This document shows, piece by piece, positions 57,001-63,000 of a DNA stretch of 64,000 bases. A program made the position numbers. Source of the stretch: an uncultured delta proteobacterium (lineage in GTDB: Bacteria; Desulfobacterota; Syntrophia; Syntrophales; Smithellaceae); contig CAWETF010000005.1 of assembly GCA_963812045.1 (NCBI GenBank), forward strand, positions 747,696 through 811,695. The letters run 5' to 3'. Numbering within the stretch: position 1 is the first letter of the stretch; the number at the start of each line of letters is the position of its first letter.

Positions 57001-60000
57001 AATTCATCCGCCGGGATCAGCATGGCGCTGGAATCGCCGGAAGCTACGGAAACAGCCTTTTTGATTATCAGCAGTTTTTTGCTTTTCTTCTGCACATGGG
57101 TTCCCACTTCCTTGAGCATATTCACAAAAGGAAGGGCGCTGCCGTCCATGACGGGAACTTCAAACGAATCCAGTTCAACAACCGCATTATCAACTCCCAT
57201 GCCGCTGAATGCCGACAAAAGATGCTCCACTGTGGAAACAGTGACGCCATCAGAACCGACAGTAGTAGCCAGTGTTGTATCGCAGACATTGTCATAACGG
57301 GCGTGAATCGGCGCGGTATCAGGCAGATCTTTGCGAATAAAAACAATACCCGTATCCGCATGCGCCGGCTTTATCTTCATGTTGATTTTGCGTCCGGTGT
57401 GCAAACCTATGCTGGAACAATTTATATCTTTCTTTAGAGTACGCTGTAAATGCATAATACTTTTCCTGACCTATAATAACAGCAAGGACTGTACCATATT
57501 TTGAAAAGTTTCTCATTAAATACAAGTTATTGTAATTATTAATTTATAGTTTAAAAAGAGGCGTTGCGGAACAGCTGTTTTTTATCTCAATGTGTTAAAA
57601 ATGACACACTTTATGATGATTATGCCATTTCGTTTAAATATTAATATTTCTCATTCCATAATACAGTTGTCTTTTATCTGAAATTTGATAAACACAAAGA
57701 CCGTATTCAATTCACAAATCAACATAAAAAGGATGTCATTCATTGAAAAATAAAATCTATACATTTTTAAGAATAGCATTGCCCATTATAGGCATTATCA
57801 TCGGAGGAGCTAAATTTTTCGGAGCTCCGGGAGAGGTTAACCTTTTCAGGCAACTTGGCGAATCGGATAACTTTCGTATTGTATTCGGCATCATGCAGGC
57901 TGTCTGCGGCATCATCATAATCATTCCCGAACTGGAATTAACAGGCATTATCTCCAGTGCTATACTGTTAATTGTTGCCATTTCTTTAATGATGTCTCAT
58001 TACATGAATGCGGTCGCTGCAGTTCCTGTTGCGGGCGTTGTCACCCTGGTGATCTTCGCCTGGTGCAGAAAAGCGTGGGAAGCAAATCTTCCTTTCAAAG
58101 ATAAAATTATCATTGTCACGGGCGGCGGCGCGGGTATCGGACGTTCTTTGTGCGAAGAACTGGGACACAGGAAGGCGCAGGTAATTGTAGCGGGTAGAAC
58201 CATGGCCGGGGTTAATGAAACTGTTGCAAACATAAGGGCCGCAGGCGGCCGCGCCGAAGCGGTTCACATGGACGTTTCCAAAGAAACAGATGTCCTAAAC
58301 GGCATAGATATGGTCGTGACAAAATACGGAAGACTCGATTACATCATCAATAACGCGGGTATCAATATTGCGGGAGAGATGCGGGATTTGAAAATCGAGC
58401 ATTTCCGTGAGGTCATCGATATCAATCTGATGGGAACTCTTCACGGTACGATGGCCGCTTACCGCGTAATGATCAAACAGGGTTTCGGACATATCGTCAA
58501 TATGTCTTCACTGGCCGGTCTGGTTCCTTTCCCGGCAAATGCGCCATATACTACAACAAAACACGCGATCGTTGGTTTATCGACAGTATTGCGGGCGGAG
58601 GCAAAAGCCTTTGGTGTTAAGGTCAGCGTCGCGTGTCCGGGATTGATCAGAACTTCTATATGGGAAAAAACACGTATGATGAAAGCCTCAAACGAGGATA
58701 TGTTGAACCTTATCGGCGAAAGAATGATGCTGGATGTAAATTCAACAACCCGGATGATTCTTAATGGTGTTTGCCGCAATCAGGCTATTATTACTTTTCC
58801 GATGAACGCCCATTTAATGTGGTGGCTCTACCGGATTAATCCGGCAACCTTTGCCCCTGTGGGGAAAATAATCATCTACCTGTTTAGAAAAATTCGTAAA
58901 GATAGTTAAATGATATTTACTTACAATACCTCTCCTTCTCACTGTATACGCACCCACAGTAGGGTTGGCGATACATATCCATTTCCTTGGATATCCTGAC
59001 GCCTTCCGCCCAGCCCAAGCGGAAATCCTGATAATGAAAAAATATCCCCAGTTGCCGGCTTATGCTTTTCCCCATTTCACGAATCAGGTCATGCTGTTGA
59101 TACTTGCTATACAGCAGTGTGGTTGTGAACCCGTCGTAATTTTCCTTAATCGCCAGTTGCGCCGTGTATGCCAGACGGTCCCTCAGGCAAAAGGCGCATC
59201 TCCCTTCTTTATTAAAAACGGAAACCGCTCGAAGAAATTCCTCCAGCGGATAACCTTCCGGCCAGATGACATTCAAGAAAGCTTTTTCCGCGTAATCGCT
59301 GAGCGTCTGGCGGCGCCTCTGATATTCGAGATACGGATGAATGTTGGGATTATAAAAGACGCCGGTAACCTGATGCCCCTGAGTTCTTAACTCTTTCAGG
59401 GGATAGATTGTGCAGGGCCCGCAGCAGATGTGCATTAGAATTTTCATATTATAATAATACCTGTGGAACTGTTGAAAAACGCTCATCTACTGCGTTGCGC
59501 TGCAAACCGCGCCGCTCAACGTATATCTTTATACGCCTCGCGGTTCGTTTTTTGCGCGCCTTGCATCTGAACATTTTTGAACAGCCCCAAACATTACATT
59601 AAAAAACGATTACGCCGTTCTACTCAACAGATTTTTATTTATCTGTCATTGTCCAACTCAATTGGGCAATCCAGCATTCTCTTTATTTTATCGGACGCTG
59701 TCACTCGTATGTCCATATTTTTCCGTAAGGCTGGTAACATGCACATTAAATTATTTTTTCTAAATTCTAGATTCTTCCAATCATTACCAGTAATAATTTT
59801 ACGACAATTAGAATTACTGCAATTGCATTTCATTTTAAATTTTGGATTAGATTCTGCCAGACCGTAATCGTAAGTTAATTCTTCACCCTTTCTAATATTT
59901 CTAATCGCAATAAAATCTCCATTTTTATTGAATCCAACATTTCCATTACATGAATGATTAAAATACCATTCAATACATAATAAATTAAAATCATTATCTT

Positions 60001-63000
60001 CTGGTGAAATAAATCCTCTCGGTGAACCAATACAAAAATCTAATATTTTTTTCTTAATATCTTTATCAACATATTTTACTTCTTCCCAAGTAACCAAATC
60101 CTTGTAATCTTCTTTATGTATACCTTCAGCAATAAACTGTTCTTTTTTTATTTTCCTAGCAGCAAAAACTCCAATACCATGAATTTCTGATGTCGCGAGT
60201 TCTATTAAAACTTCTTTAAATTTTTTTTTACTCAAGTCCATTCTCTGCCTCTATAAATTCATCTTTTCTTTCTAAGTAAGTCTTTTCCAAATATTTCCTT
60301 TTTTCTTTTTTATTTAGCTTCCCATCTTCAATCTTAACTTCTTTTACTTCATAATCTAAATAATTATCATACAATGTTTGCAAATTCTCATAATAAGTAT
60401 CATCTTCTTCTGATCGTATGCACCACTTTCTTCTTATTTCACGTATACTATTGTTTTGTTCACTAAAATAAAAATAACGACTTGCGTACCAACCAAGACT
60501 ACTATCCCACACTAATTTTTTATCAATAACTCCTTTATAAACAAGAGTACTAAAATCTTCTAAAAGCTCTAAAACTTGCTCTAAACAATCTAAATTCACA
60601 TTTTTTCCATGTACATTTTTATGTACCAATATTTTCATTGCATTTTTTCTATTTTTTCTCATTTGATCAGTATTCCATTGTTTACTATAATCTATTAATG
60701 TTTGTATTTTATATTGTTCTTGTATGGAAATTAATTGAAAATAAATTATTAATGCGCCTATTAATCCAACTCCATATGTTATTAATTGTTCCTTGTTTAA
60801 ACAATATAAATTCAAAAAATCGCAGTTCGACAAATGATGTTTATGAAGAAAAGAAATGACTGTTAATATAAAGTAAAATAAAAACGCAAGAGATAATACT
60901 ATTCCTGGTAATGTGCGTAGTTTTTTAATATTACTTTTAAAGCAACTTATAATATTTCTAATATACCAGATAATATTTTGCATATGTTTGCTTATTTTAA
61001 AATATAAAATTCGAAACATGGAACACCATATTAGTTTCCAATTTCTACATGGGCTGTTCAAAAGTGCCGAGATGCTAGGCGCGCAAAAATCAAATCGCGA
61101 GGCGTATACTTTAATACGTTGAGCGATAGGATTTGCAGCGCAACAACGCAGATCGGTGCTTTTCAACAGCCCGCCTTAAAATATTTCTCCCTGCCCTGTG
61201 GGTTTGAGACCAAAATGTTTATACGCTCTGGCGCTGGCGATTCTTCCGCGGGCCGTTCTTTGCAGATAACCTTCCTGAATCAGGTACGGTTCGTAGACAT
61301 CTTCGATGGTCACCCTTTCTTCGCCGATGGCCGCGGCCAGACTCTCCACTCCGACAGGTCCGCCGTTGAATTTTTCTATCAGCGTCAGAAGCAGTTTTCT
61401 GTCCATCTGATCAAAGCCTTTCTGATCAACCTCAAAGGCATCCAGTGCTTCGCGCGCGATCTTCCCGTCAATGGTTCCGTCCGCTTTTACTTCGGCGTAG
61501 TCGCGGACACGTTTGAGCAGACGGTTGGCAATACGAGGCGTGCCCCGTGCGCGTCCAGCCAGTTCTTCCGCCCCCGCGGCGGCAAGCTTTACTCCCAGAA
61601 TGGAAGCCGATCTCTTCAAAATAATGGCGAGTTCCGGTGGCGTGTAAAATTCCAGACGGAAATGCATACCGAAACGGTCACGCAAAGGCGAGGTCAGCGA
61701 TCCGGCGCGGGTTGTCGCGCCCACCAAGGTAAATTTGGGAATGTCCAGTTTCATTGATCTGGCCGATGGTCCCTGCCCGATTAAAATATCGATATGGAAA
61801 TCCTCCATGGCCGGATACAAAATTTCCTCCACCACGTGGGAAAGCCTGTGAATTTCATCAATGAAGAGAACCTCGTGTTCCTGCATGTTCGTTAAAATCG
61901 CCGCCAGATCTCCCGGCCTCTCTATCACGGGGCCTGACGTCACCTTGATATCAACGCCCATTTCTTTAGCGATAATATAAGCCAGCGTGGTTTTTCCCAA
62001 ACCTGGCGGGCCGTATAAAAGAACATGATCGAGCGCCTCGCGGCGTTTTCTCGCCGCTTCAATGAATATTGCCAGATTGCTCTTGACTTTTTCCTGACCG
62101 ATGTAATCGGTCAGCTTTGCCGGCCGCAAAGTAACTTCAAATTCAACTTCTTCTTCAGTAATGGAAGGACTGATTAAAGAATTTTTTATGGGTTTATCCA
62201 TTAATATTCCTCACAGGCGCATTACCCGGCAAGTATTTTTAAAGCTTTCTTCAAAAGTTTATCCATCACCATTTCGCCATCCGACTGTCGTATGGCCTTA
62301 TCCAGAGCATCTTTGGCGACACCGTTCTTATAGCCCAGATTCACCAGCGCGGAAAGAACGTCTTCGGTTATCATATCGTCAACACGCTTCTGGGCGGCCG
62401 TGCCCGGCGCCACCTCGATCATCATCTGCTTGGAGGCTTTTTCCTTCAACTCCAGAACGAGGCGTTCGGCCATCTTTTTGCCGACGCCCGGAATGCGGGT
62501 AAGCTTAGCCACGTTGCCGTCGCAGATGGCCTGAAGCAACTCCTGCGTGGGAATGCCGGAAAGGATATTCATGGCCATTTTCGGGCCGATGCCGCTCACC
62601 GAAATCAAAAGCTGGAAAAGCTCCTTTTCCTGAACGGTATAAAAACCATACAGATTGATGGCATCCTCTTTGACATGGGTATGAATCTGCAGAGTTATCT
62701 GCTGGCCGACTTCCGGCAACTCGTAAAAGGTCGTCAGGGGAATATAAACATGGTAACCGATGCCCTGAACATCTATGACAACGCTGGAAATATGTTTGCT
62801 GGCAATTTTACCGCTGATTAAGGCGATCATCAGATTGATTTCTCCTTGAAGAAATTTGCGTGGCAAATGGCCGCCGCCAGTGCGTCGGCCGCGTCCGGCG
62901 GAGGCAATTCCGGCAGATTCAATATGGCCTTGACCATCATCTGCACCTGTCTTTTTTCCGCCCTTCCGTAACCCACCACAGCTTTTTTAATTTCCAGCGG

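Follow-up and report, generated by a model that had tools for sequence, protein, structure and literature searches.

A SET-domain methyltransferase and its DUF4760 membrane partner as a putative mobile two-gene module in the ruvB–queH interval of a Smithellaceae genome

The stretch of DNA analysed here, called the window below, comprises 64,000 nucleotides (nt) of an uncultured Smithellaceae bacterium (GenBank GCA_963812045.1, contig CAWETF010000005.1, positions 747,696 to 811,695). In this window two overlapping minus-strand genes fill an AT-rich insert between ruvB and queH, the upstream one encoding a membrane protein with a DUF4760 domain and the downstream one a SET-domain protein. We consider it probable, at roughly 60%, that this cassette represents a conserved module of two genes that moves horizontally and whose products work together as one complex. 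In the mechanism that we propose, the upstream gene would supply an inner-membrane adaptor, built from an N-in transmembrane (TM) hairpin and a cytoplasmic helical DUF4760 domain, and the downstream gene, translationally coupled to it, would supply a SET/post-SET methyltransferase that the adaptor tethers at the cytoplasmic face of the membrane. The DUF4760 domain probably selects the target of the SET enzyme or gates the enzyme, which in turn would methylate an amine, of lysine or otherwise, on a substrate close to the membrane; this substrate is most likely a protein.

The pairing of a SET gene with a gene for a membrane partner is real and conserved. A scan with the SET profile, one genome per species, recovered 42 loci, of which 40 were informative for the upstream gene. 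A membrane partner lies directly upstream of SET in 31 of the 40: in 24 it is a DUF4760-type protein on the same strand, recognized by the partner hidden Markov model (one of these is fused and one fragmented), and in seven it is an unrelated four-TM protein described below. No gap separates the two genes in any of the 21 unfused DUF4760-type pairs measured: partner stop and SET start overlap or abut, the median overlap being 26 nt, and this is a signature of translational coupling. The search for homologues of the partner returned 22 proteins, five of which (P0128, P0131, P0133, P0134, P0137) are fusions of 401–426 amino acids (aa) with a C-terminal SET domain, and the order TM–DUF4760–SET within the fusions is the same as the gene order. 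Since the SET enzyme is obligately coupled to a membrane module by fusion or overlap in most lineages, an endogenous methylation target localised at the membrane is indicated. An earlier reading of the window by a model, the original prediction, had described the pair as a module not found in the literature. The 31 loci and the natural fusions establish the pair as a conserved unit, and the literature search likewise yielded no description of a SET plus membrane-partner module, mention of DUF4760 just in an unrelated context, and no link of SET domains to phage defence. At one locus (L045, 5572–6621) partner and SET are each split over two frames, through decay of the copy or an error of assembly.

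Both halves of the pair are exchangeable. The second partner type, a four-TM protein of ~190 aa, occupies the same position as the DUF4760 protein at seven loci, upstream of SET in four (L041, L043, L044, L050) and fused to it in three of the seven (L017, L034, L037). It shares no homology with DUF4760 (hhalign probability 1.6%), falls in no Pfam family and carries an invariant EK..D.LDE.D..K motif. On the enzyme side, the longer matches of the partner profile contain DUF4760 fused to SET (P0166, P0137), to a GNAT acetyltransferase (P0272, P0264) and to a TauD-family dioxygenase (P0245), and in a relative of the last fusion DUF4760 and TauD are adjacent genes 4 nt apart (L132, 5001–6536). The fused GNAT scored 85.1 bits with the rimI model TIGR01575 (cut-off 86.4) and found its best PDB matches in archaeal ARD1 and Naa20/30/10; these matches place it among the protein N-terminal acetyltransferases of the RimI/Ard1/Naa type. 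For the TauD part the nearest relatives are the small-molecule dioxygenases TmpA, clavaminate synthase and PvcB. The fusions and pairs therefore show one adaptor combined with three enzyme types and one SET family combined with two unrelated membrane modules. This suggests that DUF4760 might serve as a general membrane adaptor for modifying enzymes.

The SET assignment of the original prediction was borne out by profile, motifs and fold. The 200-aa protein contains GIGVFA (the GxG motif), FNHSCNGN, GEELTYDYG and CNCSNSNC, and it matches Pfam SET (PF00856) at 49.1 bits against a cut-off of 22.4, with the whole 105-position model covered. Its best sequence matches in the PDB are the SET and post-SET domains of KMT2D, KMT2C and KMT2A (E 6.5e-10), and its NHSC, ELTYDY and CxCxxxxC align with the corresponding motifs of KMT2D. 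Foldseek comparison of its AlphaFold2 (AF2) model, which has a predicted local distance difference test (pLDDT) score of 84.8, retrieved MLL4, MLL3, MLL1, ASH1L and NSD at E ~1e-9 and probability 1.00, with TM-scores of 0.5–0.6. Over 36 SET homologues H96, C98, Y124, D125, Y126, C139, C141 and C146 are invariant, so that the post-SET zinc cluster, made of C139, C141 and C146 together with C98 of NHSC, is complete. The same 36 homologues share a family-specific helix, ITGNDWK..FR..N..YMLP.LR, after the post-SET cluster, and the final ~26 residues of the window protein are unconserved. Taking sequence and model together, we regard the product as a canonical methyltransferase of the SET plus post-SET kind, with KMT2/MLL as its nearest relatives, and predict that it is catalytically intact. 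A more distant match (E 3e-5) is to BurB, a SET-like enzyme of solved structure. BurB acts on a small molecule.

The partner was assigned to DUF4760 (PF15956) at 30.1 bits against a cut-off of 25, and comparison with diverse DUF4760 proteins by hhalign gave 99.9% probability and E 6e-31 over 163 columns. The two N-terminal TM helices and the soluble domain anticipated from the letters of the window alone are recovered here as an N-terminal TM hairpin (residues ~25–48 and 64–86), the DUF4760 profile match and an all-helical AF2 model (pLDDT 84.3) in which two long hydrophobic helices precede a helical bundle. The Lys/Glu-rich tail also stood, as a C-terminal helix, and the length of ~260 aa was corrected to 251 aa. 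YSKQWN, LEQVLELLEDFS and SLGWYASRY are invariant motifs of the homologue alignment. Charges read from the sequence are basic before the first and after the second TM helix, around a short near-neutral loop, and this distribution suggests an N-in/C-in topology with the DUF4760 domain in the cytoplasm. No match to the partner was found in the PDB (by sequence or profile), PHROGs, PADLOC or NCBIfam. BFVD yielded one borderline phage protein (E 0.015). The partner profile collected 175 representative clusters from 1.84 billion proteins, and the homologue search with the broad DUF4760 profile 13 proteins.

The layout of the cassette in the window is collected in Table 1. The reading frames of the two genes share 14 nt, as read directly from the sequence; the SET ATG sits within GAGAATGGACTTGAGTAA, with GAGG ~9 nt upstream. 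The mechanical ORF (open reading frame) of the partner, 60228–61166 on the minus strand (312 aa), begins at TTG 61166 inside a flanking repeat. The true start is most likely the ATG at 60983 (MQNII...), because the homologues are 250–255 aa long and the stretch upstream is poorly conserved: 60984–61050 is just 73.8% identical to a sister genome that carries the same cassette. The original prediction of a low-GC (guanine plus cytosine) cassette with two overlapping minus-strand ORFs holds in full. The GC content of 59592–61050 is 26.9% against a window mean of 42.4%, the minimum among all windows of 1459 nt and ~3.7 standard deviations under the mean. Comparison with the sister genome gave ratios of nonsynonymous to synonymous divergence (dN/dS) of 0.29 for SET and 0.31 for the partner, indicative of purifying selection; values of ~0.3 for both mean that the genes are coding and under constraint. 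The synonymous divergence of the cassette genes between the window and the sister genome (0.26–0.34) is far under that of the flanking genes (0.8–1.8), and this could reflect exchange between the two lineages after their split or an artefact of extreme AT bias at synonymous sites. An Rfam search gave nothing on the cassette or the repeats, no tRNA lies near the cassette, and promoter and terminator scans stayed at chance level.

Table 1. Genes and repeats of the cassette locus, in coordinates of the 64,000-nt window
Feature	Coordinates	Strand	Basis and remarks
Partner gene (DUF4760)	60228..60983	−	251 aa from ATG 60983; ORF listing, Pfam and homologue alignment
SET + post-SET methyltransferase gene (predicted)	59639..60241	−	200 aa; Pfam SET, PDB sequence matches, AF2/Foldseek
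ruvB, upstream edge of insertion site	61176..62201	−	protein 95.9% identical to RuvB of the sister genome (L001); Pfam RuvB domains in the L001 orthologue
queH, downstream edge of insertion site	58917..59447	−	start ATG 59447 (MKILMHICCGPC)
Repeat copy C	61051..61175	+	~120-nt imperfect palindrome, starts 4 nt past ruvB stop; hairpin dG −53.5 kcal/mol, z −5.8
Repeat copy B	59468..59591	−	inverted; 48 nt past SET stop, ~20 nt before queH start; hairpin dG −60.5 kcal/mol, z −7.25
Repeat copy A	36180..36308	+	unlinked, intergenic, ~10 nt past stop of minus-strand ORF 36319–37101

Mobility of the cassette is seen at the ruvB–queH site itself, for which loci recovered with the RuvB of the window were compared. 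The sister genome, a Syntrophaceae bog metagenome-assembled genome (L001, L002, L010), has the same two genes in the same gap, at a similarly low GC content of 23–31% and flanked by both repeat copies in the same orientation as in the window. In more distant relatives the gap is empty, ~26–90 nt long and free of the repeat, namely in L054–56 (RuvB 87% identical), L060 (93%) and L061–65 (72–77%). With these empty sites the proposal that the cassette had been inserted in the ruvB–queH interval is confirmed, and the abutting of ruvB and queH is read as the ancestral state. Other cargo is found at the same site in two close relatives: in L066 (RuvB 97%) the ruvB-proximal repeat is followed by a gene for a MORN-repeat lipoprotein (915–1556), and L052 (RuvB 96%) has a 217-aa multi-TM ORF (7156–7809) with no Pfam match and no repeat. 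Outside the sister species the cassette was never found between ruvB and queH. We take the gap to be a cargo hotspot of this Syntrophaceae lineage, apparently marked by the palindromic repeat. Two observations at related sites are added here. The spacer after the ruvB stop in L052, CGTTGAAAAAG, resembles the terminus of the repeat and may be a footprint, and in L053 a duplicated 44-aa ruvB fragment (4931–5062, 88% identical) lies ~660 nt downstream of an intact ruvB, at the contig end.

The wider distribution is that of a foreign-looking islet. The SET family comprises more than 300 clusters, which are 50–90% identical across phyla. It is patchily distributed, at 45–68% identity over Syntrophales, Binataceae, Acidobacteriota, Nitrospirota, Bacteroidota, Ignavibacteria and Patescibacteria, and occurs further in Kryptoniota and in a bin labelled Micrarchaeota; all hosts are uncultured and known from environmental metagenome-assembled genomes. 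The GC content of the cassette is under that of its flanks in 48 of 50 loci, typically by 8–14 points. The extreme case is L028 (~5200–6550), where a SET pair of 28–39% GC lies inside DNA of 65–74% GC, a difference of 27 points, with sharp edges and no terminal repeats.

The repeats that bracket the cassette had been likened to those of a cassette mobilised by a MITE (miniature inverted-repeat transposable element). The inverted copies on both sides are there; the mobilisation fares less well. Each of the three copies in the window folds as a single imperfect hairpin of ~120 nt with a free energy (dG) of −53 to −62 kcal/mol and z scores of −5.8 to −7.3. All three are intergenic, just 3′ of a minus-strand gene, and occur in both orientations. 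Copies B and C are inverted relative to each other and 78% complementary over 119 nt. The ends form a terminal inverted repeat of ~11–14 nt with the consensus CTGTTSAAAAA, which has six matches in the window against 0.2 expected, four of the six being the ends of copies A and B. In size, copy number (three of ~120–125 nt), lack of coding content and terminal inverted repeats, these elements have the traits of MITEs. Two solitary matches to the terminal motif (CTGTTGAAAAA at 37984–37994 and 40604–40614) lie outside full copies and may be half-site remnants or chance occurrences.

Were the two repeats the ends of a composite MITE-flanked transposon that carried the cassette into the gap, one would account for their place at the extreme edges of the insert, immediately past ruvB and before queH, for their inverted orientation and terminal inverted repeats, for the identical arrangement in the sister genome, and for the fact that, of no more than three copies in 64 kb, two flank the insert. 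We nevertheless judge this improbable. Copies A and B are 93% identical but C is 78–81% identical to either, so that the flanking copies B and C are not a matched pair. The repeats are absent from the ~45 SET loci of other lineages and present in close relatives of the window alone, four cassettes examined for their ends (L008, L011, L016, L028) have no terminal repeats of any kind, and a unit of repeat, cargo and repeat was not met at other sites or in genomes that are not close. Copy C occupies the corresponding position in the sister genome (L001, L002, L010) and in L066, and copy B is present in the former and absent from L066 and L052, so L066 combines the ruvB-proximal copy only with other cargo and L052 other cargo with no repeat. 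No target-site duplication was evident at the three junction pairs, the exact ends of the elements being uncertain, and no transposase with matching ends was found; the only transposase seen nearby in the sister genome, of an IS256-like element in L001, has unrelated ends, and this element was rejected as the parent of the repeat. Finally, the position of all copies, each just 3′ of a co-directional gene, is that of REP-like (repetitive extragenic palindromic) intergenic elements. The kinship to MITE and REP-like elements extends to the length of ~120 nt, terminal inverted repeats, long hairpin, absence of an ORF, multiple copies and location 3′ of genes, and stops at the target-site duplication and cognate transposase, neither of which was found, and at the restriction to close relatives. 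Because the ruvB-proximal copy is common to the window, L001 and L066 in spite of differing cargo, and the copies are unmatched, the repeat is not part of the module and is unlikely to be its vehicle. We regard the repeats as lineage-specific intergenic palindromic elements that, as far as the compared sites tell, mark the cargo hotspot from outside the SET module; the repeat may promote the hotspot in this lineage. The reading of the repeats as attC sites of an integron gene cassette has hardly any standing. Imperfect palindromes of ~120 nt with bulged bases do flank a small cassette that is co-directional with its neighbours, and cargo does turn over at the site. The attC core sites have the consensus R″ RYYYAAC and R′ GTTRRRY. 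The repeats end in 5′-CTGTT...AACAG-3′, of the opposite polarity, and the copies are inverted, not direct, two features on which we discard the attC reading. The sister genome also showed no integrase within ~10 kb.

For the role of the proposed membrane-tethered module, our best guess is an accessory conflict function, for example interference with phages or mobile elements. We hold it tentatively, at odds well below even, and the rest of the probability is divided among other possibilities, one being that the module modifies a membrane protein or lipid in an accessory role. The gene context is suggestive only. In L003–6 the SET cassette adjoins an integrase gene inside a prophage-like or satellite-like element that also encodes a GpA terminase and a Prim-Pol primase; in L007 its neighbours are ArdC, a resolvase, a helicase of the HKD-SNF2 type and a type IIG restriction-modification enzyme; and in L024 EcoRII and Vsr abut the SET gene. 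Five of the seven loci with the four-TM partner abut a type IIG restriction-modification enzyme (L017, L050), a DUF4062-HATPase_c_4 protein (L041, L044, L050) or a caspase-like protease (L034). A specific form of this idea, possible but rather unlikely in our estimate, is a two-gene anti-phage or abortive-infection system in which the membrane protein would kill by pore formation or depolarisation and the SET enzyme would sense infection or restrain the effector, for instance if an S-adenosylmethionine (SAM)-dependent modification lapses once a phage depletes SAM or halts host synthesis. Such a system would fit the islet behaviour of a cassette that is AT-richer than its host nearly everywhere, its location in a hotspot with cargo turnover, its place near an integrase in a prophage-like or satellite-like element, the eight or nine loci that adjoin restriction-modification, HKD-SNF2, DUF4062-HATPase_c_4, caspase-like protease or EcoRII/Vsr genes, and the swappable TM modules and enzymes, which are typical of conflict systems.

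Several results weigh against a conflict role or against the tethered complex as we have drawn it. Over 31 loci the two nearest genes on each side are mostly metabolic, the majority of DUF4760-type loci are set in metabolic surroundings, and at least two-thirds of the loci have ordinary metabolic neighbours, a figure that comes with no background control; defence or mobile-element genes within ~2–3 genes were met in ~8–9 of ~32 non-Patescibacteria loci, a raw count with no background rate. Neither protein matches PADLOC models (E<=1), and there was no PHROG match. The SET family is absent from the INPHARED phages and from IMG/VR, and the plasmid collections hold distant SET proteins only. In the natural fusions a sensor and an effector would have to reside on one chain, which is possible but makes the logic of toxin restraint awkward. 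Moreover, eight Patescibacteria loci and the deltaproteobacterial L024 have the SET gene with no membrane partner at all, and for this reason tethering is not obligatory for the SET enzyme. The substrate itself may be other than a protein, given the small-molecule relatives of the TauD partner and the match to BurB. At two of the partner-less Patescibacteria loci (L046, 1011–2702; L051, 4187–5860) the SET gene adjoins a large multi-TM protein that looks histidine-kinase-like by eye.

A non-protein substrate is taken furthest in the proposal that the module modifies a membrane-embedded amine, such as the head group of a phospholipid or aminolipid or a lipid-linked precursor of the cell wall, with DUF4760 presenting the lipid to enzymes that transfer methyl, acetyl or hydroxyl groups. 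The enzyme is indeed held at the membrane in most lineages, and the set of SET, GNAT and TauD fits known aminolipid-tailoring chemistries, the dioxygenase and BurB similarities pointing the same way. We think it improbable all the same: the SET domain, with its complete post-SET cluster, is closest to protein lysine methyltransferases, the GNAT partner belongs to the protein N-terminal acetyltransferases, no lipid-biosynthesis genes are conserved nearby, and no SET enzyme that acts on lipids is known to us. A protein lysine is kept as the likeliest target, in view of the likeness of the SET domain to KMT2 and of the NAT-type protein acetyltransferase that can take its place in this architecture. 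Effector function had been among the roles initially considered for the pair. As a secreted nucleomodulin the SET protein would methylate histones of a eukaryotic host, the membrane protein acting as chaperone or immunity partner; most bacterial SET proteins known from experiments belong to this class, and the domain is closest to eukaryotic KMT2. The data speak against it, since the enzyme comes with an N-terminal membrane anchor, by fusion or by coupling, and occurs in uncultured, free-living bacteria. In the fusions SET is C-terminal to the TM anchor with a predicted cytoplasmic orientation, inspection by eye gave no N-terminal signal peptide in the SET sequence, and the hosts, known from metagenome-assembled genomes, are free-living anaerobes and soil or peat bacteria including Patescibacteria. 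A secreted role therefore has next to no weight in our estimate. The broadest version of the conflict idea, which we regard as doubtful, is that DUF4760 and the four-TM partners define an undescribed class of modular, membrane-anchored modification systems in which the adaptor can be coupled to any of several exchangeable enzymes, SET (SAM), NAT (acetyl-CoA) or TauD (2-oxoglutarate). The SET version would then be a new defence against phages or mobile elements that either covalently modifies a membrane-proximal protein of the invader or guards the cofactor supply and releases a membrane effector when the modification lapses.

Compared with described systems, the tethered SET module combines a known enzyme fold with an undescribed, conserved, membrane-tethered two-component architecture. 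The enzymes of the KMT2/MLL type (also ASH1L, NSD and SETD2) are its best matches in sequence and fold and share GxG, NHSC, ELTYDY and CxCxxxxC, but the window protein is a stand-alone SET enzyme of 200 aa with its own C-terminal helix and no chromatin-reading domains, and it is coupled to a membrane adaptor where KMT2 is coupled to WRAD-type partners. To our knowledge, prokaryotic SET enzymes have been known almost only as secreted histone-methylating effectors or as rare modifiers of chromatin proteins. With the nucleomodulins (Legionella RomA/LegAS4, Chlamydia NUE, Bacillus anthracis BaSET) the family shares a bacterial and horizontally patchy occurrence; those proteins are secreted into eukaryotic cells, whereas the window enzyme is predicted to be tied to the membrane of its producer, in free-living hosts. 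Within DUF4760, for which no function is known, the SET-linked partners are members that form a small subgroup (the 175 clusters) with an extra N-terminal TM helix. Naa60/NatF is a eukaryotic membrane-anchored protein N-terminal acetyltransferase. By analogy it offers a protein-modifying enzyme at the cytosolic face of a membrane, the more so as DUF4760 is also fused to NAT/RimI-type GNATs, but the anchors are not homologous and here consist of a separate or fused module of TM helices and a helical domain. The enzyme plus TM pairs of defence systems (TM-effector variants of CBASS or Pycsar, and Kiwa) resemble the cassette in being compact pairs with island-like spread and swapping of TM modules; they differ from it in that it has no PADLOC homology and that SET chemistry is not known in described defence systems. 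A role that can be tested, as membrane adaptor of enzymes that modify proteins, is thereby proposed for DUF4760, and if the module is a conflict system, protein methylation would join the known chemistries of bacterial immunity.

Three minor features of the window were recorded besides the cassette. A 388-aa gene on the opposite strand between queH and lpxC (57743–58909, plus strand) encodes a DoxX-like membrane N-terminus fused to a short-chain dehydrogenase; since queH and lpxC adjoin each other in the sister genome L001, this is a second insertion or deletion beside the cassette. The sole Rfam match of the window is the ‘pan’ cis-regulatory motif (RF01749) at 19368–19442 on the minus strand, with 41.8 bits (gathering score 36.2). 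Two copies of an AT-rich direct repeat of 61 nt, 77% identical and 7.8 kb apart, occur at 34745–34805 and 42543–42603.

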